The notes below the pieces were generated by a model, which ran no database searches, was not told where the DNA came from, and worked only from the letters and a program-made list of their open reading frames with translations. Shown piece by piece: positions 1,555 to 60,425 of a DNA stretch of 64,000 nt; the first letter of the stretch is position 1; every line of letters starts with the position of its first letter. The position numbers were made by a program, and so were the translations under genes. Origin of the DNA: an uncultured Oscillospiraceae bacterium. GTDB taxonomy: Bacteria > Bacillota > Clostridia > Christensenellales > CAG-138. The DNA lies in assembly GCA_964600225.1 (NCBI GenBank), contig CAZRIT010000003.1, positions 13,400-77,399 on the forward strand. The letters run 5' to 3'.

Positions 1555-1851
1555 TGCGAGACCACATGTGACACAATTCGACAAGGCCCCGCTCCGTCGC
1601 CAAAACAAGCAAAAACCCCCGCACGCGAGGGCTTTTGCTTGGGATGGGATGGGAGGTAATATTGGGGTTTGTGTATTTCTGTCCTTGCTCTGGTAATAAG
1701 ATACCCCATGGATGTGATGACGAAATGGATGAAAAGTGAACTTAGTGTAACATACGATTTTTTTCTTTTTTGCCGCTGAAACACAGGCAAAATGTGGTAT
1801 GATATCAGTAGGCATGAAAGCAAAGAAACTTGCCGAAGAAGGAGTGGTAAC

Positions 1852-2394
1852 ATGCGCATCACGATCTCAGGAAAAAATCTGGACATCTCCGATTCATTGC
1901 GCGGCCTGGTGGAAAAAAAGGTCAACAAACTCGAAAGGTACTTTCCGCAGGATACCGAAGCGCAGGTCACGCTCGCCCTGGAAAAGAACCGCCACATCGT
2001 CGAAGTCACCATCCCCTTTGACGGCGGCGTTATCCGCGGCGAGGAAGTCACAGGAGACATGTACGCATCCATCGACAACGTCCTGGACAAGCTGGAAAAG
2101 CAGATCATCCGCCACCGCACCAAGCTGGAAAAGAGCCTTCGCTCGGGCGCGTTTCGGTACGATCATCCGCTGTTTGGCGGCAGCTACGAGGACGTCGAGG
2201 ACGAGGGCGAGGGCCCGCACATCGTGCGCGTGAAGCGTTTCAACATCAAGCCCATGACCGAGGAGGAGGCTATGATGCAAATTGAAATGATCGGCCACTC
2301 GTTCTATGTGTTCGTCAATGCCGATACCGACAGGATGAACGTGCTGTACAAGCGCAAGGACGGCAACTACGGCCTGATCGAGCCCGAGGCATAA
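1852..2394 (+). CDS. hpf: ribosome hibernation promoting factor, long form
   Basis: 'MRITISGKNLDISDSLRGLVEKKVNKLERYF' N-domain plus C-terminal dimerisation domain 'IVRVKRFNIKPMTEEEAMMQIEMIGHSFYVFVNADTDRMNVLYKRKDGNYGLIEP'. SD GAAGGAG before ATG 1852, so the track start 1792 is too far upstream. Confidence 0.9.
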   Translation: MRITISGKNLDISDSLRGLVEKKVNKLERYFPQDTEAQVTLALEKNRHIVEVTIPFDGGVIRGEEVTGDMYASIDNVLDKLEKQIIRHRTKLEKSLRSGAFRYDHPLFGGSYEDVEDEGEGPHIVRVKRFNIKPMTEEEAMMQIEMIGHSFYVFVNADTDRMNVLYKRKDGNYGLIEPEA

Positions 2395-2427
2395 CAGCCA
2401 CCATTCATTTCATTACGGTCTTTTTAC

Positions 2428-2456
2428 GCGGACGGCATATGCCGTCCGCTTTGTCT
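2428..2456 (+). terminator. hairpin GCGGACGGCATATGCCGTCCGC followed by TTTGTCT after hpf
   Basis: Perfect GC-rich palindrome 34 nt after the hpf stop, with a short U-rich tail. Confidence 0.6.
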
Positions 2457-2699
2457 ATCGAAAAACGTTGTTTTTCGATAGTGTAACCGCTTCTTGCCTA
2501 AAGTCCTGCGGACTTTGGGCGGCAAGAAGCACAAGGAAACCGCCCGAAACGGGCGATCCGTTCCGACGTACACGCCGTCGGAGCCGGAATGCATAGGGTT
2601 AAGGGCTGTGGCCCTTAACAATCCCCAAGGCTTTTTTTGACGGCGCAATCTATGGTAGAATACAAAAAATGGAAGAATCAGGAAAACGGGGGATTGCGC

Positions 2700-3668
2700 A
2701 TGGTCGATCAAAGGCTCAGGCTGCTGTTTATCAGGGATTACTTCTTTGAAAACACCGATGAAACGCATACCGTCACCGTGCCCGAGCTGATCGCGGCCAT
2801 CATGGCGGCGGGCTTTACGGCCGATCGGCGCACGGTCTATACCGATATCAAAAGCCTCTGCGCCTATGGCATGGATATCCGAAAGCGGCGCAGCAAGACG
2901 CACGATTACTATCTGGCCTCCCGCACATTTGAGCTGGCGGAACTGAAGCTGATGGTGGACGCGGTGCAGTCGGCGCGTTTCCTGACGGCCAAAAAATCGG
3001 ATCGGCTGATTCAAAAGCTGTCGAATTTGACCAGCCGCCACCATGCCCGTCAGCTGTCGCGGTATGTGCATGTGCAAAACCGCGTCAAAACCGATAACGA
3101 GCGCATCTATCAAACTGTGGACGCCATCCATGCCGCTGTCCGCGACGGCAGAAAGATCGGCTTTCGCTACTGCCAGTATACGCAGTCGGGCACGCTGCGG
3201 CCGCGGCGCGGCGGGGAAACGTATGTCGTCAGCCCGTATCTGCTAAGCTGGGCGGAGGATAACTACTACCTCATCGCCGATCATCCCGTGCATACGGGGC
3301 CGACGCACTATCGGGTGGACAAGATGACGGATGTGACGGTGCTGGAGGAGGCCCTGACCCCGCCCGAGCGTGCGCTGGAGCCCGCAGACTACGCCAAAAA
3401 GCTGTTCTCCATGTATGCGGGCGACGAAACGTGGGTGGAACTGGCGTTTGACGAAGCGCTTATCGGCGCGGCCATCGATCGGTTCGGCACGGATGTGACG
3501 ATACGGCAAACGGACGACGGCGCGTGCATCGTGCGCGCAAAGGTCGCCGTGAGCCCTTCGTTTTTCGGCTGGCTGTTTCAGTTTGGGGATCAGGTTACAA
3601 TCGTTTCGCCCGCGGACGTGCGCATGCGCATGGCGCAACTGCTCGCACAGACGCAGCGGCGCTATTGA
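2700..3668 (+). CDS. HTH-WYL-WCX domain transcriptional regulator (BrxR/CapW/PafC-like architecture)
   Basis: N-terminal wHTH 'HTVTVPELIAAIMAAGFTADRRTVYTDIKSL'. WYL core 'KIGFRYCQYT...YVVSPYLLSWAEDNYYLIADHP'. C-terminal 'FFGWLFQFGDQVTIVSPADVRMRM'. ATG 2700 chosen over track start 2637. Confidence 0.8.
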   Translation: MVDQRLRLLFIRDYFFENTDETHTVTVPELIAAIMAAGFTADRRTVYTDIKSLCAYGMDIRKRRSKTHDYYLASRTFELAELKLMVDAVQSARFLTAKKSDRLIQKLSNLTSRHHARQLSRYVHVQNRVKTDNERIYQTVDAIHAAVRDGRKIGFRYCQYTQSGTLRPRRGGETYVVSPYLLSWAEDNYYLIADHPVHTGPTHYRVDKMTDVTVLEEALTPPERALEPADYAKKLFSMYAGDETWVELAFDEALIGAAIDRFGTDVTIRQTDDGACIVRAKVAVSPSFFGWLFQFGDQVTIVSPADVRMRMAQLLAQTQRRY

Positions 3669-3736
3669 AGCGGCCTTATGCGGGCGGCGAGGGGCGCAAA
3701 CGCCAAAGACGTCAGGATTTTGTTGCGGAGATGCTG

Positions 3737-3765
3737 TTGCCAATTCTGCATAGTCCGTATATACT
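3737..3765 (+). promoter_or_regulatory. sigma-A-type promoter TTGCCA-17-TATACT for the DUF4160/DUF2442 pair
   Basis: Hexamers read directly, with a 17-nt spacer, 19 nt upstream of the GTG start. Confidence 0.45.
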
Positions 3766-3783
3766 GGACTTGAGGTGAAAACT

Positions 3784-4050
3784 GTGCCAACGCTGTCGAT
3801 GTTTTACGGAATTGTCGTGTACATGCACGCGGAACGGGGCGAACGCCATAACAAGCCGCATCTGCACGCAAGATACCAGGATAACGAAATTGCGGTGGAT
3901 TTTGAAGGCAACGTGCTCGAGGGCGAATTGCCGATGAAAAAACTGCGGATGCTGCTTGTATGGATGGATTTGCACGTTGAGGAGTTGGAAGCGAACTGGT
4001 CTATTCTGCAGGAAGGCGGAGATTATTTCAGGATTGATCCTTTACGGTAA
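3784..4050 (+). CDS. DUF4160 family small protein
   Basis: '(M)PTLSMFYGIVVYMHAERGERHNKPHLHARYQDNEIAV' matches my memory of the DUF4160 N-terminus. GAGGTG SD sits 7 nt before GTG 3784, and track start 3775 lies inside the SD. Confidence 0.75.
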   Translation: MPTLSMFYGIVVYMHAERGERHNKPHLHARYQDNEIAVDFEGNVLEGELPMKKLRMLLVWMDLHVEELEANWSILQEGGDYFRIDPLR

Positions 4051-4066
4051 GGAGGCGAACGGAACC

Positions 4067-4309
4067 ATGCTGCAGCCAACCGCGATCAGGGTAAAGCCGT
4101 TAACGGATTATTGCCTCTATATTGAATTTGACAACGGTGAAAAGAAAGTGTTTGACGTGAAGCCGTATATCAAAGGGAATCTGTACGGCAAGCTGCACGA
4201 TGCCGCTGTATTCAATTCCGTACGGACGAATGGCTATACGGTTGAATGGTCGGGCGGGCAGGATATTGCACCGCATGAACTGTACGATTACGGCAAGCCT
4301 ATAGAATGA
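4067..4309 (+). CDS. DUF2442 family small protein
   Basis: 'MLQPTAIRVKPLTDYCLYIEFDNGEKKVFDVKPYI...' is a DUF2442-like beta-rich protein. AAGGAGG SD lies 11 nt upstream of the ATG, which is 16 nt after the DUF4160 stop. Confidence 0.75.
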   Translation: MLQPTAIRVKPLTDYCLYIEFDNGEKKVFDVKPYIKGNLYGKLHDAAVFNSVRTNGYTVEWSGGQDIAPHELYDYGKPIE

Positions 4310-4329
4310 AACGGAACGCAAACATGCAA

Positions 4330-4362
4330 CAGCCGGGACGCAAGTTCCCGGCTGCATTTTTT
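4330..4362 (+). terminator. intrinsic terminator CAGCCGGGA-7nt-TCCCGGCTG + T6
   Basis: 9-bp GC stem followed by CATTTTTT, 20 nt after the DUF2442 stop. Confidence 0.7.
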
Positions 4363-4389
4363 AAAATATGAGGCGTGACAAGAACCGCT

Positions 4390-4995
4390 CTACCGCACGC
4401 CGATGCGCGTGGGTGCGCGTAGGATGTGCCCGTCGCGCCACGTCTGTGCGTCGGTGACGGTGTGCCAGCCGCCGCAGTTACAGACATCCCATTCCAGATA
4501 GTGCCGCTTTTTGGGCACGGCAAAATATTGCATCAGCGCCATGATCGTGCCGCCGTGGGCCACGACGGTCAGGCCGGGTTCGTTGCTGTTCAGCGCGTCG
4601 TCCACCAGCTTGGAAAACGCCTCCGCCACGCGCAGGGTGAACTGCTTGACGTCCTCGCCGTTGGGGCACGCGCCGTAGCCGTTGCTTGCCATCCAGGTCG
4701 TATAGGCGGCGGTGCTTTGCAGCTCCTGATGGGTGCGCCCCTCAAAATCCCCGAAATGCATCTCCTTGATGCCCTCCACGGTCACAAGCGCGGCGTCGGG
4801 AAACAGCACCTCGGCCGTCTGGCGCGTGCGCTGCAGCGGGGTGATGAACACGGTTTTCGGCTGCATGGGAAGCAGCGCCCTGGCGGCGGCGGCCGCCGTG
4901 AGCCCATCGGGACAGACGGGCACATCCGTCCAGCCGCAAAAGCGTTTCTGTCCGTTCTCGGCGGTTTGGGCGTGGCGAATCAGGTATACGTCCAT
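4390..4995 (-). CDS. cobC: histidine-phosphatase family protein, probable alpha-ribazole phosphatase
   Basis: 'VYLIRHAQTAEN...FCGWTDVP' RHG motif and '...VVAHGGTI'. Last gene of the cob operon. SD AAGGAG. Confidence 0.7.
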   Translation of the reverse strand: MDVYLIRHAQTAENGQKRFCGWTDVPVCPDGLTAAAAARALLPMQPKTVFITPLQRTRQTAEVLFPDAALVTVEGIKEMHFGDFEGRTHQELQSTAAYTTWMASNGYGACPNGEDVKQFTLRVAEAFSKLVDDALNSNEPGLTVVAHGGTIMALMQYFAVPKKRHYLEWDVCNCGGWHTVTDAQTWRDGHILRAPTRIGVR

Positions 4996-5001
4996 GCTGA
5001 A

Positions 5002-5346
5002 TTACTCCTTGATGATGATGGGGATGCCGCAGACCAGCCGCACGACCTTTGTGGCCTGCTGCGCCAACAGGATGCACAGCCGCCCCGTCGCCTCGCGGCC
5101 CTCGCGCGCATGGCGGTCAGCGGGGATGACGCCGCTGCCGACCTCGTTGCACACCACGACTTCCTTTTGGATGAGCTTTGGCAGCAGGCTGCCGCAGCCC
5201 GACGGATCGGCCATGGCGATGGCGTGCAAATCCGTCAGCACGGGCCTGTCGTCCGCCCAGTCGGCGGACATCTGTCCGTCCAAATAGCCGAGCGAGCGCA
5301 CATACGCGCGCTTTCCCGAGGCCGCGGCGCCGATGACCAGCATCAT
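5002..5346 (-). CDS. truncated CobU-like P-loop protein (about 114 aa) lacking the central segment
   Basis: P-loop 'GAAASGKR' and CobU C-terminal block 'VVVCNEVGSGVIPADRHAREGREATGRLCILLAQQATKVVRLVCGIPI'. ATG 5346 overlaps the cobS stop (ATGA) and has AAGGTGG 8 nt upstream. Confidence 0.65.
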   Translation of the reverse strand: MMLVIGAAASGKRAYVRSLGYLDGQMSADWADDRPVLTDLHAIAMADPSGCGSLLPKLIQKEVVVCNEVGSGVIPADRHAREGREATGRLCILLAQQATKVVRLVCGIPIIIKE

Positions 5347-6113
5347 AAGCATACCACCTTTCGCACCAGTATGAAAACCGCAAGCATTGCAATTTCACAC
5401 AATTGTATCAAATACCCTGCCAAATCGCCGCTCATGCCGCCAAAGCGCCGTTGGGAAAGGAGGCGCACATACCCGCCGCACAGCAGGCTTGCGGCGGCCA
5501 TGGCGACGCCTGCGGAGATATCCATGCAGATTAGCCCCGCCGTGCCGAGCAAAAACCACATCGCCAGCACCGTGCCCGACGTCCCGGCGGAAGCGTCGCG
5601 GAACGTGGTCAGCAGGCCCGCGCCGCCCGCGGCGGGGAAGCACGCCGCGCCAAGCCCGCCCACGGCGCGGCTGACGACGGGGATGAGCGCCATGATGGCG
5701 GCGGCTTCCCGTGCGCGCGGCAGCTCCGTACACAGCGCAAAGTAGAGCAGCAGGTATGCCGAAACGCCCATCACCGCAAACGCGCCTGTGTGCGGGTCCT
5801 TCATGATCTCGCGCCGCCGCGCGGGCGGGGCGTGGCTTGCCATGGCGTCGGATACGTCCATGAGTCCGTCGAGATGGATGCCGCCCGATATCCAAACGGG
5901 CAGCAGCGTCAGGCCCGCCGCAAACAGTATCTGCCCGAAGTCAAGCTTTTGGCAAAGCCAAAACCAGCCGCACACGGTCAGCCCGATGACCAAGCCCACC
6001 GTCGGCAGCGCGGCAAGCGCGTGGCGCATGTTGCCCTTGTCCCAGTTGAGCTTTGGCATGGGCAGTATGGAAAACATGGCAAACGCCATGCCGAGGCTTC
6101 GGAGGATGTTCAT
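5343..6113 (-). CDS. cobS: adenosylcobinamide-GDP ribazoletransferase (cobalamin synthase)
   Basis: Polytopic membrane protein with 'GGIHLDGLMDVSDA...' and 'FGGMSGDLAGY'. Start MNILRS at 6113 overlaps the cobU stop (ATGA). Confidence 0.9.
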   Translation of the reverse strand: MNILRSLGMAFAMFSILPMPKLNWDKGNMRHALAALPTVGLVIGLTVCGWFWLCQKLDFGQILFAAGLTLLPVWISGGIHLDGLMDVSDAMASHAPPARRREIMKDPHTGAFAVMGVSAYLLLYFALCTELPRAREAAAIMALIPVVSRAVGGLGAACFPAAGGAGLLTTFRDASAGTSGTVLAMWFLLGTAGLICMDISAGVAMAAASLLCGGYVRLLSQRRFGGMSGDLAGYLIQLCEIAMLAVFILVRKVVCL

Positions 6114-6637
6114 ATCGGCAGCGCTCCTTTCCGTACAAGCGGAATCCCCGCAACCAGCTCGGCGACGCAATCAAACCGCGCTGCCAACGCAGCGTTGAGG
6201 CGGCCGAGCGTTTCCACATAGCGCATGGTGGAGGCGTCATACCCGCCGCCGTCGCTGCCGACGTCGTTGGTGACGACGATGAGCGTTTCGCAAAGCGCTT
6301 CCAGGCGCCCGACGCCGTCCAGAATGGCTTGGTATGCGCCCGCGCCCGCGCCGTCGGGCGAAAACATCTCGTTGGCGGTAAGGTTACACAGGCATTCCAG
6401 CAGAATGGCGCCGTACGGCGCGTCGACGGACAGGCCCCGTAAATCCGTGTACCGCTCCACGGTCACAAACCCCTTGCCCTGCCGCATGGCCCGATGGCGC
6501 AGGATGCGCTGCGCGCCCTCGCCGCCGTACGGCAGCATCGTGGCAAGGTAGCAAACAGGGCCGTTGGCCGCTGTTGCCAACCGCTCGGCATAGGTGCTTT
6601 TTCCGCAGGCGGAGCCGCCCGTGAGCAATATCCGCAT
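6110..6637 (-). CDS. cobU: adenosylcobinamide kinase / adenosylcobinamide-phosphate guanylyltransferase
   Basis: 'MRILLTGGSACGKSTYAE', 'ILRHRAMRQ' (His region), 'LIVVTNDVG'. SD GGGAGG before ATG 6637. Confidence 0.85.
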   Translation of the reverse strand: MRILLTGGSACGKSTYAERLATAANGPVCYLATMLPYGGEGAQRILRHRAMRQGKGFVTVERYTDLRGLSVDAPYGAILLECLCNLTANEMFSPDGAGAGAYQAILDGVGRLEALCETLIVVTNDVGSDGGGYDASTMRYVETLGRLNAALAARFDCVAELVAGIPLVRKGALPI

Positions 6638-6647
6638 ACTGCCTCCC

Positions 6648-7685
6648 TTACATGCCGATATCGGCATAGGTCATGAGCCGGTCGTACACCGACAGCGCCA
6701 TATCCAATAATGGCAGCGCGGCCACCGCGCCCGTGCCCTCGCCAAGGCGCATGTTGGCGCAAATCAGCGGCTGAAGGCCCAGCGTTTGCAGGATCATGCC
6801 GCCCGCGGGCTCGGCGGAGATGTGGCTTGCCAGCATGGCGTGCTGCGCGCTGGGGCACAGCCTAACGGCGGTCAGCGCGGCCACGGAGCTGATGAAGCCG
6901 TCGATCACCACAGGCATGCGGTTTTTCGCGCCGCCCAGGAACACCCCGCACAGCCCCGCGATATCGAGCCCGCCAAGCTTGTGCAGCACATCGAACGCAT
7001 CGACGGGATCGGGGCGGTTGACGGCAATGCCGCGCTCGATGGCGGCAAGCTTTCGCGTCAGGCCCGCGTCGGACAGCCCCGCGCCGCGGCCCGTGACATC
7101 GGTGACCGCACAGCCCGTGAGCACCGCGGCCATGGCGGCGGAGGTGGTGGTGTTGCCAATGCCCATCTCGCCCGTGAGCAGGATATCGTAGCCCGCCCGC
7201 TTGCAATCGTCCGCCAGCGCCATGCCCGCCTCGATGGCGCGCTCCGCTTCGTCGGCGGTCATGGCGGGGCCAAGCGTAAAATCACTGGTGCCGTCCGCAA
7301 TGCGGCGGCGAATAAGCCGCGGCTCGTCCACTGCGCGCATCAGTCCCATATCGACGGGGATGACGTCGGCGCGGGCATAGTCGGCCATGATGCACACCGA
7401 GGAGCGATGCTTGGCGATAAACGCGCTCATCACGCCCGTAATATGCACGGGCGTTTGCGCCACGCCCTGCCTGCAAACGCCGTTGTCGGCGCACAGCACC
7501 AGCACCGCGCGCTTGTTTAACCGCACCTTGGGCGTATCCATGACGCCCGCCATACGGGTAACGGCCGTTTCCAGCGCGCCAAGGCTGCCGATGGGCTTGG
7601 CGATATCGTCCCAGCGGCGGGCGGCCTCGGCCGTGGCGCGCTCGCTGACGGGCGGGATGCTGCTGTTGAAGGCTGTAAAGTTCAT
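6648..7685 (-). CDS. cobT: nicotinate-nucleotide--dimethylbenzimidazole phosphoribosyltransferase
   Basis: 'KPIGSLGALE', 'LLTGEMGIGNTTTSAA', 'MRLGEGTGA'. Start MNFTAF at 7685 overlaps the upstream stop (ATGA). The track ORF runs to 7904 in the same frame but that extension is not coding-like. Confidence 0.9.
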   Translation of the reverse strand: MNFTAFNSSIPPVSERATAEAARRWDDIAKPIGSLGALETAVTRMAGVMDTPKVRLNKRAVLVLCADNGVCRQGVAQTPVHITGVMSAFIAKHRSSVCIMADYARADVIPVDMGLMRAVDEPRLIRRRIADGTSDFTLGPAMTADEAERAIEAGMALADDCKRAGYDILLTGEMGIGNTTTSAAMAAVLTGCAVTDVTGRGAGLSDAGLTRKLAAIERGIAVNRPDPVDAFDVLHKLGGLDIAGLCGVFLGGAKNRMPVVIDGFISSVAALTAVRLCPSAQHAMLASHISAEPAGGMILQTLGLQPLICANMRLGEGTGAVAALPLLDMALSVYDRLMTYADIGM

Positions 7686-8449
7686 TCCGTTTTCTCCTCC
7701 CATTGGGAAAGCATGGCCTGCATGCGCGCGTACACATCGGTATGGTAAACGGTCTGTAGGTTCTGCCGCGTCAAGACATCGTCCATCGGCCCAAATGATT
7801 GCACCGTGCCGCCGTTTAGCAGCAGCGCGTGCGTGCCGTAGGCTTTGGCAAGGCTTAAATCGTGCACAACCGATACGACGGCGCGCTGCGGCTGCCTGAG
7901 CCAATCCGCAATCAGGCCGAACACCTGCTCCTGATAGACCAAATCCAGGTGGTTGCTGGGCTCGTCCAGCAGCAGCAGACGCGGGTTTTGCGCAAACACC
8001 TGCGCAAGAAACGTCCTTTGCAGCTCCCCGCCCGAAAGCGTCAGGGCGGATTGTTCCTGCATGCCCGTCAGCCCCGTCATCTCCAGCGCGCGCAGGATAT
8101 GCGCCTTGTCGTCATTGCCGCCGCTGCCAAAGAGGCCGCCCGCATAGGCGTAGCGGCCCATCTCCACAATCTGCCGAACCGTAAAGGCATAGCCGACGGA
8201 TTGGTGCTGCATCAGCACGCCCATCCGCCTTGCAAGCTCACGCGGCTTGCTTTTCCCGACGTCCGCGCCTTCAAACAGCACCCGTCCCGTGTACGGCGCG
8301 CACTGTGAGATGGCGTTGATGAGCGTGCTCTTGCCCGCGCCGTTGGGGCCGACGATCATCAGCCACTGCCCCGCTTGGACGGAGAAGCCGACGCGGTCAA
8401 GCAGCGTGAGGCTGCCGTAGCGCACGGACAGATCGCTTACCTTAAGCAC
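7682..8449 (-). CDS. ABC transporter ATP-binding protein (iron-siderophore/cobalamin FecE/BtuD family)
   Basis: Walker A 'GPNGAGKST', signature 'LSGGELQR', Walker B 'LLLLDEP'. GTG 8449 has AGGAGG upstream and overlaps the permease stop. Confidence 0.9.
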   Translation of the reverse strand: MLKVSDLSVRYGSLTLLDRVGFSVQAGQWLMIVGPNGAGKSTLINAISQCAPYTGRVLFEGADVGKSKPRELARRMGVLMQHQSVGYAFTVRQIVEMGRYAYAGGLFGSGGNDDKAHILRALEMTGLTGMQEQSALTLSGGELQRTFLAQVFAQNPRLLLLDEPSNHLDLVYQEQVFGLIADWLRQPQRAVVSVVHDLSLAKAYGTHALLLNGGTVQSFGPMDDVLTRQNLQTVYHTDVYARMQAMLSQWEEKTE

Positions 8450-9482
8450 GGCCGTTCCTCCTTGCAACGTAGAATATGTACACAAACAGCACCGTGCCAA
8501 TCAGTGAGGTTACCACGCCGATGGGCAGCTCCAACGGGTTGAGCAGCACGCGCGCGGCCAGGTCGGAAAGCATCAGGAAGATGGCGCCGCCGAACAGGCA
8601 CGCAGGCAGCAGGCGGCGGTGATCGGGCCCCACAAGCATGCGCGCCATGTGCGGCGCGACCAGCCCCACAAAGCCGATCGTGCCGCCGATGGATACGCAC
8701 ACGCCGATCAGGGCAGATACGGCAATGAGTATGGTCAGCTTGACCCGCCGCACGTTGACGCCGATGTGACGCGCGTTGTCCTCGCCGATGGCAAAGGCGT
8801 TGAGCGCGTTGGCGTGGGAGAGGATCACCGCGCCGCACACAACGAGCGCAATCAAAAGCAGCAGCGCGTCCCGATAGCCGCTGCCCGAGAGGCTGCCCAT
8901 GGTCCAAAAGGTGATGTGCTTGAGTTTATCGGGCCGCAGCGTGATGATCAGCGACAGAAAACCCGAGACGAACATCGAAAAGATCACCCCGATGAGGATG
9001 ATGGTGTTGGTGGAAAACGAGCAGTCCATGCGGTACGCAAGCGAGAGAATCAGCAACAGCGACAAAAACGCAAACAGGATGGCCATGACGGTGGTGCCCG
9101 CAAACGGCAGATTGGGCAGCGCAATGCCAAAAGCGATGGCCAGCGCCGCGCCGAGCGACGCGCCCGACGATACGCCCAGCGTGGAGCCGTCGGCCAGCGG
9201 GTTTTTGAGCAAGCCCTGCATCGCGCCGCCGCACAGCGAAAGCGCCGCGCCCGTCAGCAGTACGCACAGCACCCTTGGCAGCCGCACCGCGCCGATGATG
9301 GCCGATGCGGTCACGCGTGCGGGAACGGGCGTGCCAAACAGCACGCGGCCGATGATGGCTGCGGTATCGCGCATGGGCACGCGCACGCTGCCCACGGATA
9401 CGCAAACGCACAGCGTAACCAGCGTCGCCCCGGAAAACAGCACATATGCCCATGCGCCAAAGCCTTCCCGTTTTGGTTTCAT
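8442..9482 (-). CDS. FecCD/BtuC-family ABC permease
   Basis: 346-aa polytopic protein, typical 'GAMQGLLKNPLADGSTLGVSSGASLGA' FecCD block. Confidence 0.9.
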   Translation of the reverse strand: MKPKREGFGAWAYVLFSGATLVTLCVCVSVGSVRVPMRDTAAIIGRVLFGTPVPARVTASAIIGAVRLPRVLCVLLTGAALSLCGGAMQGLLKNPLADGSTLGVSSGASLGAALAIAFGIALPNLPFAGTTVMAILFAFLSLLLILSLAYRMDCSFSTNTIILIGVIFSMFVSGFLSLIITLRPDKLKHITFWTMGSLSGSGYRDALLLLIALVVCGAVILSHANALNAFAIGEDNARHIGVNVRRVKLTILIAVSALIGVCVSIGGTIGFVGLVAPHMARMLVGPDHRRLLPACLFGGAIFLMLSDLAARVLLNPLELPIGVVTSLIGTVLFVYIFYVARRNGRA

Positions 9483-9537
9483 ACGCCTCCGTGTGCGGCG
9501 GGTGGACGGCCTGCGCCGCCCCCGCCGTCAAGTTTTG

Positions 9538-10524
9538 TTATGCCGCCGCGTCCAGCGCTTCGACGCCGTAAACAAACTCGTACAGCAGCTCCGCCCCGTC
9601 CACAAGACGCTGCGTGGGGCGGGAGAGTTCATCGTTGGTCAGGTTGAGGATGGCGGCGTTTTGTACCGCCGTCACGTTCTCCCAGCCCTTGCGGGCAAGG
9701 ATTTCCTCCGTGGGCGTAGGGCCCTCGCCGTAGTACATGGAGATGGTCACAATGTAATCGGGGTTGCGCTCCAACACCTGCTCCTCGGAGATTTCCGCCC
9801 AGCCCGTCACGTCGGCAAAGCAGTTGGTCAGGTGGAGCATGGCGGCGATTTCATCCATAAACGTTCCCGCGCCCGCCGTCCACAGGCCGTATTGCAGCGG
9901 GGAAACCTCAAAGTAGACGGTTTTGCCGTCGGCGTCCGCCGTTTCGGCCGAAAGCTTGGCAAAGGCGGCCTGCATGTTGTCCGTGACGGCTTTGGCCTCG
10001 GCGGATTTGCCCGTGAGCGCGCCGATCATATCGATGGCGGCGTAGACGCCCGCAATGTCCGTCTCCTTGGAGACGACCACTTGGATGCCCGCCTGCTCGA
10101 GCGCTGCAATCTGTTCCTCGGACTGCGCCATGGTGCTCATCAGCACCACCTGCGGCTCCAGCGCGATGATCTGCTCCAGGTTGGTTTCAAAGCCCGATTG
10201 CACGGAGGGCGCATCGAGCGCCTCGGGCGGGTAGTTGCAGTACTCGCCGCGGCCCACGAGCAGCTCGCCCGCGCCCACGGCATACAGGTTTTCGCAATCG
10301 GATGCGGTCAGCGCCACAATGCGCGTAATCGGCGCGTCCACCGTGACGGTGCGGCCCGCCATATCCGTAACGGTGACGCGTTCGGCGGCGGGCGCATCGG
10401 AAGGTGTGTTGGTCGCGCTCGGCTCCGCTATGGGGGTTGCGGGGGCCTTGGCACAGGCGGCGCAAAGGAGCAGGACGCTGAGGATTGTCGAAAGGATGCG
10501 GGAGACGGTTTTGGTTCGGTTCAT
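9538..10524 (-). CDS. substrate-binding lipoprotein, Fe3+-siderophore/B12 (BtuF-like) family
   Basis: Lipobox 'LLLCAAC'. Periplasmic-binding-protein-like sequence 'RIVALTASDCENLYAVGAGELLVGR'. First gene after the cobalamin riboswitch. Confidence 0.85.
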   Translation of the reverse strand: MNRTKTVSRILSTILSVLLLCAACAKAPATPIAEPSATNTPSDAPAAERVTVTDMAGRTVTVDAPITRIVALTASDCENLYAVGAGELLVGRGEYCNYPPEALDAPSVQSGFETNLEQIIALEPQVVLMSTMAQSEEQIAALEQAGIQVVVSKETDIAGVYAAIDMIGALTGKSAEAKAVTDNMQAAFAKLSAETADADGKTVYFEVSPLQYGLWTAGAGTFMDEIAAMLHLTNCFADVTGWAEISEEQVLERNPDYIVTISMYYGEGPTPTEEILARKGWENVTAVQNAAILNLTNDELSRPTQRLVDGAELLYEFVYGVEALDAAA

Positions 10525-10581
10525 GGGTTGATTCCTCCAAAGTCGATATTACAAATGAAATGGCGGAGGAAGCGGGGGAAA

Positions 10582-10612
10582 GCAAAAAACGGCCGTTCCT
10601 TGAGTAAGGAAC
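10582..10612 (-). terminator. riboswitch expression-platform terminator GTTCCTT-ACTC-AAGGAAC + GGCCGTTTTTTGC
   Basis: Read on the minus strand between the aptamer and the SD of the SBP gene. Confidence 0.65.
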
Positions 10613-10669
10613 AACCGTGCGCTTCGGACAAAGGTCCGTTCATAGCATATCCCAACCCCAGAAGCATCT

Positions 10670-10826
10670 TTGTGTAAACAGGTCTCCCGACTTGGCTTCA
10701 TCCTTGCGGACGCCTTCCCGCCCGATGGCAGTGGCATCTGTCCGTTCGTCAGCTTCACGGTTACTGGGATAGTTCGGAATTCGCATCCGATTCCCTCGAC
10801 GCTTCTCAGCGTCGGCACAACTGTGC
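10670..10826 (-). promoter_or_regulatory. cobalamin (B12) riboswitch aptamer
   Basis: Minus strand reads '...GGGAATCGGATGCGAATTCC...CCGTGAAGCTG...GCCACTGCCATCGGGCGGGAAGGC...GAAGCCAAGTCGGGAGACCTGTT'. The last part is the B12 box (AGYCMGGAGACCKG-like). Confidence 0.85.
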
Positions 10827-10964
10827 GGATACACACGCTATTCATTTGTTCGTTCAATGTATCACCGTCCCGTGCCGTTGTCAAGAACAGGGAACAACTT
10901 TACAAATGCGCGTTTCATCCAGTATACTGGAGAAGGATTGAACGATGAAGGAGCGCGCCGTAGA

Positions 10965-42154: not shown

Positions 42155-42185
42155 AAAACAGGCGTATCCCAAAGGATACGCCTCG
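42155..42185 (-). terminator. terminator-like hairpin GGCGTATCC-TTTG-GGATACGCC + TGTTTTCTTTTC (copy A)
   Basis: Identical stem-loop to copy B, 205 bp downstream of it on the minus strand, about 70 nt upstream of yerC. Confidence 0.6.
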
Positions 42186-42364
42186 TTCATTCATTTTCCT
42201 TCTTTTCGGCAATCAACCCTCCGCAGAGGCACTGTATAATCATGGGCAAGGGCGGCATGCACGGCCGTGGCCCATACCTCGGGCATTTTGCCGACCGTCG
42301 TTTATTGAAACGACAGGCAAAAATGCGGTTACACCATCCGACAGCAAAGTTGTCGGATGGAAAA

Positions 42365-42392
42365 AGGCGTATCCCAAAGGATACGCCTCGTG
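42365..42392 (-). terminator. rpsT terminator GGCGTATCC-TTTG-GGATACGCC + TTTTTCC (copy B)
   Basis: Starts about 22 nt after the rpsT stop on the minus strand. Confidence 0.7.
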
Positions 42393-42775: not shown

Positions 42776-45016
42776 CTATTTTTCGAGCGTTTTGCGGCAC
42801 AGCCGCTTGAGCCTCAGCGCATTGGAAACCACCGTGACGCTCGACAGGCTCATGGCCAACGCCGCGATCATGGGCGACAGCAGCGGCCCGCCGAACGCAT
42901 ACAGCACGCCCGCCGCGACGGGGATGCCCACGCAGTTGTAAAAGAACGCCCAGAACAGGTTTTGCCGTATGACGCGCATGGTGACGGCGCTGACGGTGAG
43001 CGCGTGCGCCACGCTCACAAGCTCCTGCCGCATCAACACGATATCCGCGCTCTCCAGCGCCACATCCGTGCCCGCGCCGATGGCAAACCCCACATCGGCC
43101 GTGGCCAGCGCGGGCGCATCGTTGACGCCGTCGCCCACCATGCCGACCTTGCCGTAGCGCTGCTTTAGGCTTTGGATGGCCTCGGCCTTTTTATCGGGCG
43201 TGACGGAGGCGGAAACCTCCGCAATGCCCGCGCGCGCGGCGATGGCTGCGGCGGTGTGCGCGTTGTCGCCCGTAATGAGCACGCTCCGCACGCCCATGCC
43301 GCTGAGCCGTCGGATGACGTCCGCCGCGTCGGGCTTGATGGTATCGGAAACGGCCATGGCGCCAAGGTAGCGTTCGTCCGCGGAGAGATACACCACGGTT
43401 TTGCCCTGCCGCTCCAACGGCTCGGTCTGCGCCGAGGCCGCGTTGGCGATAAACGCTGCGTTGCCCACGCGAATGGCCTTGCCGCCGACCGTCGCCGTGG
43501 CCCCGAAGCCGCTGACGGCCCGGAACCGCTCGCAGGGCAGCAGCGGGATGCTTTCCGAAAGCGCATACGCGATGATGGCCTGCCCCACAGGATGCTCACT
43601 GCCCGATTCCGCGGAGGCAAACAGCTGTATAAACGTTGCCCGATCCATGCCGTCAACGGGCAGCACATCGGTCACGGAGGGCTTGCCGACGGTCAGGGTG
43701 CCCGTTTTATCAAAGGCCAGCACGCGCAAACCGTGCGCCGTCTCCAGCGCCTCGCCGCTTTTGATGAGGATGCCGTGCTCGGCTGCGGCGCCCGTGCCGA
43801 CCATGATGGCCGTGGGCGTGGCAAGGCCCAGCGCGCACGGGCACGCGATGACCAGCACGGATACAAACACCGTCAGTACAAAGCCGATGCTTTCGCCCGC
43901 AATGGCCCAGCAGACGGCGGCAAGCAGCGCAATGCCGATGACCGTGGGCACGAAGATGCCCGCAATTTGATCCGCCAGACGGGAAACGGGGGCCTTGCTG
44001 CCCTGCGCTTCCTCCACCAGGCGTATCATGGAGGCCAGCGTGGTATCGCTGCCCACGCGGTCGCACACAAAGGTAAAGGAGGTGTTGAGGTTGATGCTGC
44101 CGCCCGTCACGCGGTCGCCCACGCCCTTTTCCACGGGCATGCTTTCGCCCGTCAGCATGCTTTCGTCCACATGCGCGCTGCCGCTGTCGATCATGCCGTC
44201 CACGGGGATGCGTTCGCCCGGCCGCACCAGGATGCGGTCGCCCGGCAACAGCTTGGCAACGGCGATGGTCCGTTCGCCGTCCTCGGCAATCACCGTGGCG
44301 TGCTCGGGCGCAAGCTGCATCATGCGTTCCACCGCGTCGCCCGTCTTTCGCTTGCTGCGCGCTTCAAAGAGCTTGCCGAGCATCACCAGCGCAATGATGA
44401 CCCCCGCCGATTCCCAGTACATATCGTGCACGGCGGCGGCGTTGCCGTTGAGTACGCGCACGAACGAGAAAGCCGAAAACACGATGGCCGACAACGTGCC
44501 CACCGCCACGAGGGAATCCATGTTGGGATGCAGCCCGAACAGGGCGCGAAAGCCGTTGGTGTAGAAGCTTCCGCCCGCAATGAGGATCGGGATCAGGCAC
44601 GCAATCTGCAACAGCGTGTACGCCACGGGCGACGTGTGCATGCTCACGGGCGTTGGCAGGCCGACCATGGGGCCCATCGACAGGTAGAACAGCGGGATGG
44701 CACAGGCGATGGCCACGGTGGCGCGGCGCGATTGGCGGTTGAGCGCCAGCTCGCGCTCCCTGCGATCGCTCACGGATTGCGACACCGCGTCGGTAATCAG
44801 CGCGCAGGTAAAGCCCGCTTTCTCTACGGCCGCCGCAACGGCCTCGTCATCGGGCGAGCTGCTGCGCACGCGCATATGCTCCGTGGCCAGATTGACGCTG
44901 ACGGCGTCCACATCGGCCAAACGGCTGACGGCGCGCTCCACTGCCGCCGAGCAGGCCGCGCAGTGCATGCCGCCGATTTTATAGGAGCGGATATCGATGT
45001 CGGATGGTTGTTTCAT
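42776..45016 (-). CDS. copA: copper-translocating P1B-type ATPase
   Basis: HMA '[15 protein letters not shown]', '[10 protein letters not shown]', 'DKTGTLT', '[10 protein letters not shown]'. Confidence 0.95.
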
Positions 45017-45082
45017 ACGGTCAGTATACCATGATTAAACAGGATGTTCTCCTGATTTCACATTTTCGTTGCATTTTTTGAA

Positions 45083-45110
45083 TTGACTTGAAGCAACCTC
45101 GTGCTATAAT
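45083..45110 (+). promoter_or_regulatory. sigma-A-type promoter TTGACT-16-TATAAT for groESL
   Basis: Hexamers read directly, immediately upstream of CIRCE. Confidence 0.6.
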
Positions 45111-47135: not shown

Positions 47136-47180
47136 GAAACAGCGGTTGTTCGTAACCGCAGTCAAAATCGCATCAACACA

Positions 47181-47213
47181 AGGGCGGCCAATCGGCCGCC
47201 CTTTGCTGTCTTT
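47181..47213 (+). terminator. groEL terminator GGGCGGCC-AATC-GGCCGCCC + TTTGCTGTCTTTG
   Basis: 8-bp GC stem 46 nt after the stop, with a U-rich tail. Confidence 0.7.
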
Positions 47214-47243
47214 GCTGACTTACTCTTTTTGAAAAAAGAGTAA

Positions 47244-47517
47244 GCATACCGAGCAAATCCGAACCCGCCCAAACGGGCTGCATTGGCGGGGTTCTGCGTT
47301 CTCGTCGGTCGGAATAGCAACCGCTATGCCTTCCGCCTCGGCCTTGAACCCCATCCAATGCAGTTCGTTTGGGTTCAGGGAAGTTTGGCAGATGCAGGCG
47401 GCGTCATAGCAAGGCGGACGAAGGAGGCATACCCGGGGCGGTATTCCGACTGAGGACAACGCCGCCTATGGCGTTGCCTGTGCCATGCAAACCATGGTTC
47501 GGATTCGCTCGGTGTGC
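47244..47517. repeat. 274-bp imperfect palindrome (two diverged inverted arms of about 105-135 bp around a roughly 60-nt centre)
   Basis: Hand-paired in three blocks. 47244-47265 pairs with 47496-47517 (22 positions, 1 mismatch, 1 G-T). 47296-47318 pairs with 47440-47462 (23 positions, 3 mismatches). 47325-47346 pairs with 47410-47431 (22 positions, 4 mismatches). Confidence 0.75.
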
Positions 47518-55166: not shown

Positions 55167-55269
55167 GTCACGGCAATATCTGCCGTGACACAGCCCCTCA
55201 AAAACGTTGTTTTTGATGCGGAGGGCTATGAAACGTTCAGTCACGGCAGCAAGTGCCGTGACTTTTTTT
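55167..55269 (+). terminator. twin hairpins with identical 9-bp stems (GTCACGGCA/TGCCGTGAC); the second is followed by T7
   Basis: Hairpin 1 at 55167-55189 (loop ATATC). Hairpin 2 at 55240-55262 (loop GCAAG) plus TTTTTTT at 55263-55269. The gpr SD starts 4 nt later. Confidence 0.55.
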
Positions 55270-59347: not shown

Positions 59348-60361
59348 TTACTTAGCCTCCCATTGACGAATGAGCTCCTGTGCGATTTGGATGGTGTTGG
59401 TCGCTGCGCCCTTACGGATATTATCCGCCACGCACCAGAAGTTGATGCCGTTTTCCACCGAGAAGTCGCGGCGCAGCCGCCCGACGTACACGGGATCCTT
59501 ATCCTCGGCATGGATGGCCAAAGGATAGATATCGTGAGCGGGATCGTCCTCGACGACCAGACCGTCCATGTTTTCCCAGAGCTTGCGGATATCGCCGAGC
59601 TCAAAGGGCTTGTTGAACTCCACATTGATGCTTTCGCTGTGGCCGTGGAACACGGGCACGCGCACCGTGGTGGCGGTTACGGGCAGATCGGGGAGGGAGA
59701 GGATCTTGCGCGTTTCCTCGATCATCTTCCACTCCTCCTTGGAGTAGCCGTTTTCCAAAAAGACGTCGATGTGCGGCAGGCAGTTGCCCGCGATGGGGTA
59801 CTGGAATTTCTTGGGCGGCGCGCCGTTGAGGCCGTCCTTGAGGTCCATGTAGCCCTGCATGCCTGCGCCCGACACGGCCTGGTAGGTGGAATACACCACG
59901 CGCTTGAGGCCGTAATGGTCCGAAAGCGGCTTGAGCGGCACCATGGCCTGTATGGTGGAGCAGTTGGGGTTGGCAATGATGCCCTTGTTCTTGTACATCG
60001 GGATGGCCTCGGGGTTGACCTCGGGCACCACCAGCGGGATTTCGGGGTCCATGCGCCAGCAGCTTGAGTTGTCGATGACCACGGCGCCCGAGCGGGCGAC
60101 GATGGGCGCAAACTTTTTGGAGGTACCCGCGCCCGCGGAAAACAGCGCGATATCGATGTGAAGATCGTCAAACGCGGTCTCGGTCAATTCGCGGATGGTG
60201 TACTGCGTGCCCATAAACGGCACGGTCGTGCCCGCGCTTCTTGCGGAGGCAAACAGAAAGTACTCGGAAACGGGCAGCTTGCGCTCCTCCAGCACCCGGA
60301 GAAACTTACGTCCGACCATGCCCGTTGCGCCAACGACTGCGATGCGATACTGTTTCATCAT
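59348..60361 (-). CDS. asd: aspartate-semialdehyde dehydrogenase
   Basis: 'RIAVVGATGMVGRKF', 'IIANPNCSTIQ', 'HGHSESI'. Confidence 0.95.
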   Translation of the reverse strand: MMKQYRIAVVGATGMVGRKFLRVLEERKLPVSEYFLFASARSAGTTVPFMGTQYTIRELTETAFDDLHIDIALFSAGAGTSKKFAPIVARSGAVVIDNSSCWRMDPEIPLVVPEVNPEAIPMYKNKGIIANPNCSTIQAMVPLKPLSDHYGLKRVVYSTYQAVSGAGMQGYMDLKDGLNGAPPKKFQYPIAGNCLPHIDVFLENGYSKEEWKMIEETRKILSLPDLPVTATTVRVPVFHGHSESINVEFNKPFELGDIRKLWENMDGLVVEDDPAHDIYPLAIHAEDKDPVYVGRLRRDFSVENGINFWCVADNIRKGAATNTIQIAQELIRQWEAK

Positions 60362-60396
60362 ATTATCCCAGCTTCCTAATAGTATATAGATACATT

Positions 60397-60425
60397 ATTC
60401 TAATGGATATGTCCCCGTTTGTCAA
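60397..60425 (-). promoter_or_regulatory. sigma-A-type promoter TTGACA-17-TAGAAT for asd-dapA-dapB
   Basis: Read on the minus strand. It leaves only about a 30-nt leader before the asd ATG. Confidence 0.5.

Follow-up and report, generated by a model that had tools for sequence, protein, structure and literature searches.

A probable DhiT/DhiA-type toxin-antitoxin cassette beside a WYL regulator in an uncultured Oscillospiraceae-like bacterium

Does a regulator gene that stands beside a small two-gene cassette belong to it? The question is raised by a locus in contig CAZRIT010000003.1 of an uncultured Oscillospiraceae bacterium, on a stretch of 64,000 nucleotides (the window), in which a gene for a WYL-domain transcription regulator (2700-3668) is followed on the same, plus strand by two small genes encoding a DUF4160 protein (3784-4050) and a DUF2442 protein (4067-4309). 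A first-pass annotation of this DNA had described the three genes as an islet of lower G + C (GC) content, possibly acquired horizontally, in which a WYL sensor would regulate a mini-module that resembles a toxin-antitoxin system by layout. The reading favored here, with a probability of roughly 80%, is that the segment 3737-4362 constitutes a complete, self-contained and mobile DhiT/DhiA cassette, and that the WYL gene beside it encodes an unrelated, stand-alone regulator.

The DUF4160-DUF2442 cassette

The product of the first small gene, a protein of 88 residues with a GTG start codon, matches the DUF4160 family of Pfam (PF13711; 1.3e-18, 67.4 bits against a cut-off of 23), and that of the second, a protein of 80 residues with an ATG start codon, matches DUF2442 (PF10387; 4.1e-14), as the first-pass annotation had proposed. 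The same annotation held the function of such pairs to be experimentally unestablished, a statement superseded by work on two other organisms. The DUF4160/DUF2442 pair of Dickeya dadantii 3937, named dhiTA, is co-transcribed with the toxin gene first, and overexpression of DhiT inhibits the growth of Dickeya and Escherichia coli, an effect abolished by the co-expression of DhiA (PMC8198452). The DhiA antitoxin represses the promoter by about 50%, and in each of the three systems studied the complex of toxin and antitoxin represses its own promoter, by 70-99% (PMC8198452). On plasmids of Thermus thermophilus, a module of DUF4160 (87 residues) and DUF2442 (92 residues) proteins raises plasmid persistence; the plasmid could not be established without the second open reading frame (ORF) and could be established without the first, such that tolerance of the first ORF requires the second (PMC12724237). 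The Thermus pair is without visible effect in E. coli, and AlphaFold predicts that its two proteins form a heterodimer (PMC12724237). Additionally, a comparative study of the Menshen systems identifies DUF4160 as an effector domain, for which there is no confident structural homologue, and reports that most DUF4160 proteins are single-domain, with DUF2442 following them (PMC12065111).

The toxin of the window is matched over residues 1-76 by the NCBIfam model for DhiT (toxin_DhiT, NF048015; 5.5e-13) with 49.3 bits, a score that lies below the equivalog cut-off of 100 bits and thus marks the protein as a homologue within the family and not as an equivalog or orthologue of Dickeya DhiT. Judged by its sequence, the pair adds one distant new member to the established DhiT/DhiA family of type II toxin-antitoxin systems. 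The toxin retains all 16 residues that are invariant in an alignment of 37 homologues (F7, G9, I10, H22, P25, H26, H28, G47, P50, H64, L68, A70, W72, I84, P86 and L87), and the antitoxin likewise retains all invariant residues of its own family (P33, I35, G37, L43, F49, W61, D66 and P69). Among the former, the histidine cluster of H22, H26, H28 and H64 suggests that the toxin may have a metal-dependent or catalytic activity.

Structural models of both proteins were compared with the PDB using Foldseek, as the first-pass annotation had recommended. The AlphaFold2 model of the antitoxin (predicted local distance difference test, pLDDT, 90.7) matches the DUF2442 structures 2auw (template modeling, TM, score 0.77, root-mean-square deviation 2.0 Å, probability 1.0) and 3k8r. 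The toxin model (pLDDT 92.5) consists of five strands followed by two helices; its best match to a PDB entry has an E-value of 0.13, with none below 0.1 and TM scores of at most 0.42, and a profile search of the PDB sequences with the toxin was also empty. The fold therefore offers no usable lead to the function of the toxin.

The pair possesses the full set of expression signals that had been ascribed to it. A consensus scan places its promoter, TTGCCA-17-TATACT, at 3737-3765, within a promoter region that extends to 3783. A GAGGTG Shine-Dalgarno sequence (3772-3777) ends 6 nt before the GTG start codon of the DUF4160 gene. The DUF2442 gene, which begins after a 16-nt gap, is preceded by an AAGGAGG Shine-Dalgarno sequence (4049-4055), and the cassette closes with an intrinsic terminator (4330-4362) composed of a 9-bp GC-rich stem (4330-4354) and a T run. 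Overlapping the -10 box are an inverted repeat, AGTCC (3752-3756) and GGACT (3766-3770), and the palindrome GTATATAC (3757-3764). This dyad symmetry is a candidate operator. By analogy with the tested members of the family, DhiT would arrest growth and DhiA would bind the toxin directly and thereby neutralize it; the cassette promoter would be repressed by DhiA and, to a greater degree, by the complex of both proteins, with the dyad over the -10 box as the likely site.

Tight linkage of the two genes is seen in a survey of DUF4160 homologues, which comprised 169 loci (89 from metagenome assemblies and 80 from viral contigs) whose gene content was read by hidden Markov model (HMM) and BLAST searches of six-frame translations. 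A DUF2442 gene lies directly 3' of the DUF4160 gene on the same strand in 89/89 metagenome loci, at gaps of 2-33 nt with a mode of 15, and is present in 77 of the 80 viral loci (166/169 overall); of the three viral exceptions, at least two are contigs that break off at the DUF4160 match. In most of these homologous cassettes, a TATAAT-like box of their own precedes the start codon by 25-40 nt. The closest homologues of the toxin are just 56-63% identical to it, and those at 56-61% identity have unrelated settings: one belongs to a prophage, with a Peptidase_M78 gene and a serine recombinase as neighbors, one to a large element that also carries DNA ligase, SNase and DUF4942 genes, and one to a chromosome, amid ABC transporter genes. 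Homologues are also found on 82 viral-contig stretches, 33 plasmid records and 5 phage records.

The composition of the locus likewise separates the cassette from its surroundings. The window has a GC content of 61.5%, with a standard deviation of 3.9 points across 600-bp windows, and the two small genes have 49.4%, which agrees with the earlier remark that they are more AT-rich than their neighbors. Their GC at third codon positions (GC3) is 57-61%, against 75-84% in the neighboring genes (WYL 75%, hpf 79%, cobC 84%). At a resolution of 100 bp, the dip in GC extends from about 3700 to 4390 (some 690 bp) and takes in the cassette promoter, both genes and the terminator only. The pair is one of only four stretches in the 64 kb that fall below 52% GC in 600-bp windows; the other three are at 1401-1700, upstream of hpf, at 44901-45100 and at 60101-60400. 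The WYL gene, with 59.4% GC, is host-like in composition, and the islet of lower GC is thus the two-gene cassette alone. For the two small genes, the earlier proposal of horizontal acquisition is plausible. On either side of the GC-poor segment, searches for target-site duplications and for inverted repeats gave short matches at chance level only. In the scenario considered most probable, a mobile accessory cassette would have landed in the gap between the resident WYL gene and the operon for cobalamin salvage, which ends there in convergent orientation, and would now be fixed in the species.

The WYL regulator beside the cassette

The regulator has the architecture that had been assigned to it, a winged helix-turn-helix (wHTH) followed by WYL and WCX domains. 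Pfam places the WYL domain at residues 139-214 (1.3e-9) and WCX at residues 244-317 (1.3e-10); the N-terminus is matched weakly by HTH_11 (0.0018), with 18.5 bits under a cut-off of 25. The ATG at 2700, which gives a protein of 322 residues, agrees with the N-termini of homologues and with a GGGGGA Shine-Dalgarno sequence at 2688-2693. Some gene callers start the same DNA at an ATG at 2652 instead (338 residues). The gene is likely transcribed from a promoter with an extended -10 element, TGgTAGAAT, at 2653-2661. Its orthologues in loci L005 and L008 of the survey described below are preceded by the same box, TATGGTA(A)GA(A)T. In one metagenome contig of the same species (L196, ENA ERZ4239965), a deletion of 1 nt near window position 3472 shortens the protein to 265 residues, with loss of WCX; coverage there is about 2x, and the deletion may be an assembly error.

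The solved sequences closest to the WYL protein are the DriD-type regulators 8tp8, 7tzv and 7u02 (about 4e-8, about 36 bits). A PADLOC scan of the three islet proteins matched the WYL protein with generic WYL models alone, at up to 3.9e-30, and inspection of approximately 11 kb around the gene revealed no BREX, CBASS or CRISPR system.

Orthologues of the WYL gene were collected from 185,579 species genomes, one genome per species, which gave 80 loci at 39-66% identity, the nearest being 66% identical. Most come from metagenome-assembled genomes of Oscillospiraceae and other Clostridia, in varied contexts, and clustering of the neighbors showed no family in more than 14/80 loci. The neighbors that do recur are genes of mobile elements, namely ImmA/Peptidase_M78, XRE HTH, PemK toxin, large serine recombinase, Bro-N/ANT and HIRAN genes. 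About 12-14 of the 80 orthologues stand among such genes (representative loci are L017, L026, L034, L044, L048, L058, L059 and L074), which indicates that part of the WYL family travels on prophages or integrative elements. A different association is seen in two loci from other genera. In L008, an hpf gene (7991-8533) that is 79% identical to that of the window lies about 1 kb from the WYL orthologue, in convergent orientation, and in L006 the C-terminus of hpf (8-64) lies about 6 kb upstream of the orthologue; neither locus contains a DUF4160/DUF2442 pair. This looks like residual synteny, and the presence of hpf near WYL orthologues that lack the cassette suggests that the WYL gene is the older resident.

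No association between the regulator and the cassette emerged from either side. A DUF4160 or DUF2442 gene within 6 kb was found in 0/80 WYL orthologue loci by tblastn and HMM searches. Conversely, the survey of DUF4160-DUF2442 neighborhoods that the first-pass annotation had suggested found a WYL gene in 0/169 DUF4160 loci by HMM, at thresholds of E ≤ 1 in 512 kb of flanks for the 89 metagenome loci and E ≤ 0.1 in 664 kb for the 80 viral loci. The two are thus never neighbors across 249 related loci, and the proposal of a WYL-regulated mini-module is without comparative support; the lack of a statistical association between WYL genes and the pair is one of the outcomes that the first-pass annotation itself had named as refuting it. 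An operator common to the two promoters was also considered and rejected, as the WYL and cassette promoter regions have no word of 8 nt or more in common. The WYL protein is most likely an independent ligand-sensing transcription factor that autoregulates from the promoter at 2653-2661, and not a dedicated component of the cassette, to which it would contribute read-through transcripts at most.

Surroundings of the locus

The order of features on the plus strand is hpf, an intergenic region of 305 bp, the WYL gene, a spacer of 115 bp, the DUF4160 gene, the 16-nt gap, the DUF2442 gene and the terminator. The hpf gene (1852-2394) encodes a Ribosomal_S30AE domain together with its C-terminal domain. 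Converging on the cassette terminator from the minus strand is a cobalamin operon (4390-10849), headed by a cobalamin riboswitch (10660-10849; 79 bits), that carries transporter and nucleotide-loop assembly genes in the Pfam order Peripla_BP_2, FecCD, ABC_tran, DBI_PRT (CobT), CobU, CobS, CobU and His_Phos_1. The second CobU-like ORF is the shorter, with 114 residues. The last gene of the operon is cobC-like (4390-4995, minus strand) and encodes the His_Phos_1 histidine phosphatase.

The region between hpf and the WYL gene (2395-2699, plus strand; 50.8% GC) had been reported to contain at least six stem-loops, and six separate hairpins are indeed found within 2428-2619. They comprise the hpf terminator hairpin (2428-2449), an AT-rich hairpin with 12-bp arms (2455-2481), a long hairpin (2489-2530) and three further hairpins, the fourth to sixth, at about 2537-2559, about 2560-2584 and 2598-2619. 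The region folds with -124.5 kcal/mol, compared with -91.4 +/- 5.7 kcal/mol for shuffled sequences (z = -5.8). Nonetheless, it was rejected as a structured RNA, as an Rfam scan of 2395-2699 returned no family even at E ≤ 1 and the hairpin cluster is not conserved 3' of hpf in L006 or L008. A 23-mer around the AT-rich hairpin had no match among the viral contigs.

Hairpins of this type are abundant elsewhere in the window, which contains 29 perfect hairpins with stems of at least 8 bp, against 4-10 in shuffled sequences. The clusters at 2428-2481 and 55167-55263 have a module in common, in which an ..ACGGCA-loop-TGCCGT.. hairpin is followed after 5-8 nt by a second hairpin with the exact 15-mer core AAAAACGTTGTTTTT; the module is on the plus strand in both places, and the 15-mer occurs twice against an expectation of 0.07. 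More clusters of perfect hairpins lie at 42160-42388 and 47180-47244, and AGGCGTATCCcaaaGGATACGCCT occurs twice, 205 bp apart. The hairpins of 2395-2699 look like terminators or repetitive extragenic palindromic (REP)-like elements of a genome-wide intergenic family, and not like a feature of the islet. At the downstream end of the region, in the WYL promoter region, the ends of three Logan contigs coincide at window position 2663, and other contigs begin at 2634 or 2679. Runs of A/T adjoin these breaks and no variant sequence was seen at 2634-2679; strain variation was considered as the cause of the breaks at 2663, and a low-coverage or graph artefact was judged more likely.

Alternative readings and known systems

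Several observations weigh against a self-contained, mobile DhiT/DhiA cassette beside an unrelated regulator. Besides the score of the toxin below the equivalog cut-off, the NCBIfam scan of the antitoxin matched no model, and the toxicity, neutralization and autoregulation ascribed to the pair are extrapolated from distant tested members. No terminator was found in the spacer that leads from the end of the WYL gene to the cassette promoter (3669-3736), where the fold of 3660-3790 is indistinct from shuffled sequences (z = 0.09), such that read-through is possible and co-transcription or a local regulatory link is conceivable. Within this species the three genes are always together. Its contigs are 100% identical over 1700-4500, the exceptions being one single-nucleotide polymorphism in one contig and the low-coverage 1-nt deletion in another, and the exact matches to hpf, cobC and the DUF2442 gene are clonal contigs only, all with the same arrangement. 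The lineage is without close sequenced relatives, the nearest CobC homologue being a 73%-identical fragment and the others at most 51% identical, and the insertion is thus not demonstrable by presence or absence of the islet. Finally, in 54 of the 63 loci with enough flank (L085-L093 and L111-L190 were drawn upon), the family's cassette has a lower GC content than the DNA around it; the mean difference over the 63 is -5.3 points, and it reaches -10 to -17 points in high-GC hosts, as the difference grows with host GC. Low GC is therefore a trait of the cassettes family-wide and does not date the acquisition.

Regulators of the WYL type are known beside defence modules; BrxR controls BREX, CapW controls CBASS, and other WYL proteins are associated with CRISPR. 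A three-gene module would follow this pattern, with the WYL protein sensing a signal such as DNA damage, phage infection or a nucleotide and controlling the cassette through an operator or read-through. In its favor, a mere 115 nt without a terminator separate the WYL gene from the cassette on their common strand, the arrangement of the three genes is invariant across all contigs of the species, and the generic WYL models of PADLOC match the regulator. Against these stand the co-occurrence counts of 0/80 and 0/169, the lack of a motif common to the two promoter regions, and the difference in composition between the WYL gene and the cassette, which implies separate histories. Moreover, the cassette has its own promoter and candidate operator, and repression in the tested member needs nothing beyond the antitoxin and the complex (PMC8198452). 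Such a module is consequently considered improbable. An equally slim chance is given to a later co-option in this lineage, whereby a ligand-activated burst of transcription from the resident WYL sensor would read into dhiT-dhiA and upset the balance of toxin to antitoxin. If true, two unrelated parts would together arrest growth in response to a signal, as a switch for abortive infection or damage.

The chromosomal copies of toxin-antitoxin systems often decay, and the cassette might be an inert or domesticated remnant, transcribed but non-toxic, or a pair with a different role outside toxin-antitoxin function. The toxin does score far under the equivalog level of the tested Dickeya protein, and the silence of the Thermus pair in E. 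coli (PMC12724237) shows that activity is host-dependent. However, both ORFs are of full length with every invariant family residue kept, the promoter, Shine-Dalgarno sequences and terminator are intact, and the identical sequence recurs in metagenome contigs of at least five sequencing-run accession series. Decay or a changed role is considered marginally less credible than a three-gene module. Least probable of all is that the hairpin-rich interval, the WYL gene and the cassette are the scar of one degraded prophage or integrative element, gained in a single acquisition. Such an origin would suit the 12-14 WYL orthologues found among ImmA, XRE, PemK, serine-recombinase and Bro/ANT genes, the DUF4160-DUF2442 pairs in similar prophage positions by Peptidase_M78 and serine recombinase genes, and the unusual structure and 50.8% GC of 2395-2699. 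Yet no integrase, repressor, flanking direct repeats or tRNA were found near the WYL gene and cassette, GC3 is host-like in the former and not in the latter, the hpf genes near WYL orthologues in L006 and L008 suggest that the regulator is an older resident, and the window has clusters of hairpins in further intergenic regions.

If the locus is read as a self-contained DhiT/DhiA cassette beside a stand-alone WYL regulator, an annotation gap is corrected, and DUF4160/DUF2442 pairs in gut Clostridia can carry a DhiT/DhiA-type toxin-antitoxin label. The locus also illustrates how poorly adjacency by itself, as of the WYL gene to this small cassette, predicts that genes form a functional module. 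The question of the DhiT target belongs to the family and not to this locus, given a confidently predicted fold without a PDB match, invariant histidines and a common occurrence on prophages and plasmids. Any well-behaved DhiT member, the copy in the window included, could be used to find the cellular target.

Among known systems, the regulator has in common with DriD, PafBC, BrxR and CapW the architecture of wHTH, WYL and WCX domains, although its similarity to the solved DriD-type entries is low, at about 36 bits. Unlike regulators of the BrxR/CapW type, its orthologues are without conserved adjacency to any system that they might control. Nor does the pair conform to the tripartite PaaR-PaaA-ParE type, in which a conserved regulator forms part of the toxin-antitoxin operon, as none of the 169 DUF4160 loci includes a WYL gene and the cassette of the window has a promoter to itself. 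The nearest structural relatives of the antitoxin, 2auw and 3k8r, are structural-genomics entries without assigned function; 2auw (NE0471) has a chain of 151 residues, of which the match spans about 75, whereas the antitoxin of the window is a bare domain of 80 residues.

The toxin resembles the NsnC-like proteins of the Menshen systems in its DUF4160 toxin domain and in the lack of a confident structural homologue. In those proteins DUF4160 is fused into a multi-domain antiphage protein, whereas in the window it is single-domain and paired with DUF2442. The Thermus module is alike in its pair of domains and in gene order; it is plasmid-borne and stabilizes its plasmid, whereas the copy in the window is chromosomal, with no replicon or mobile-element genes nearby. 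A further parallel in organization is Dickeya DhiT/DhiA. The Dickeya host is an enterobacterium and its two genes overlap (distance -3; PMC8198452), in contrast to the 16-nt gap here and to a host that is a Firmicute of an Oscillospiraceae-like lineage. Despite these differences, the two systems have the same two Pfam domains, the toxin gene first, proteins of 80-90 residues and a bicistronic unit under its own promoter.

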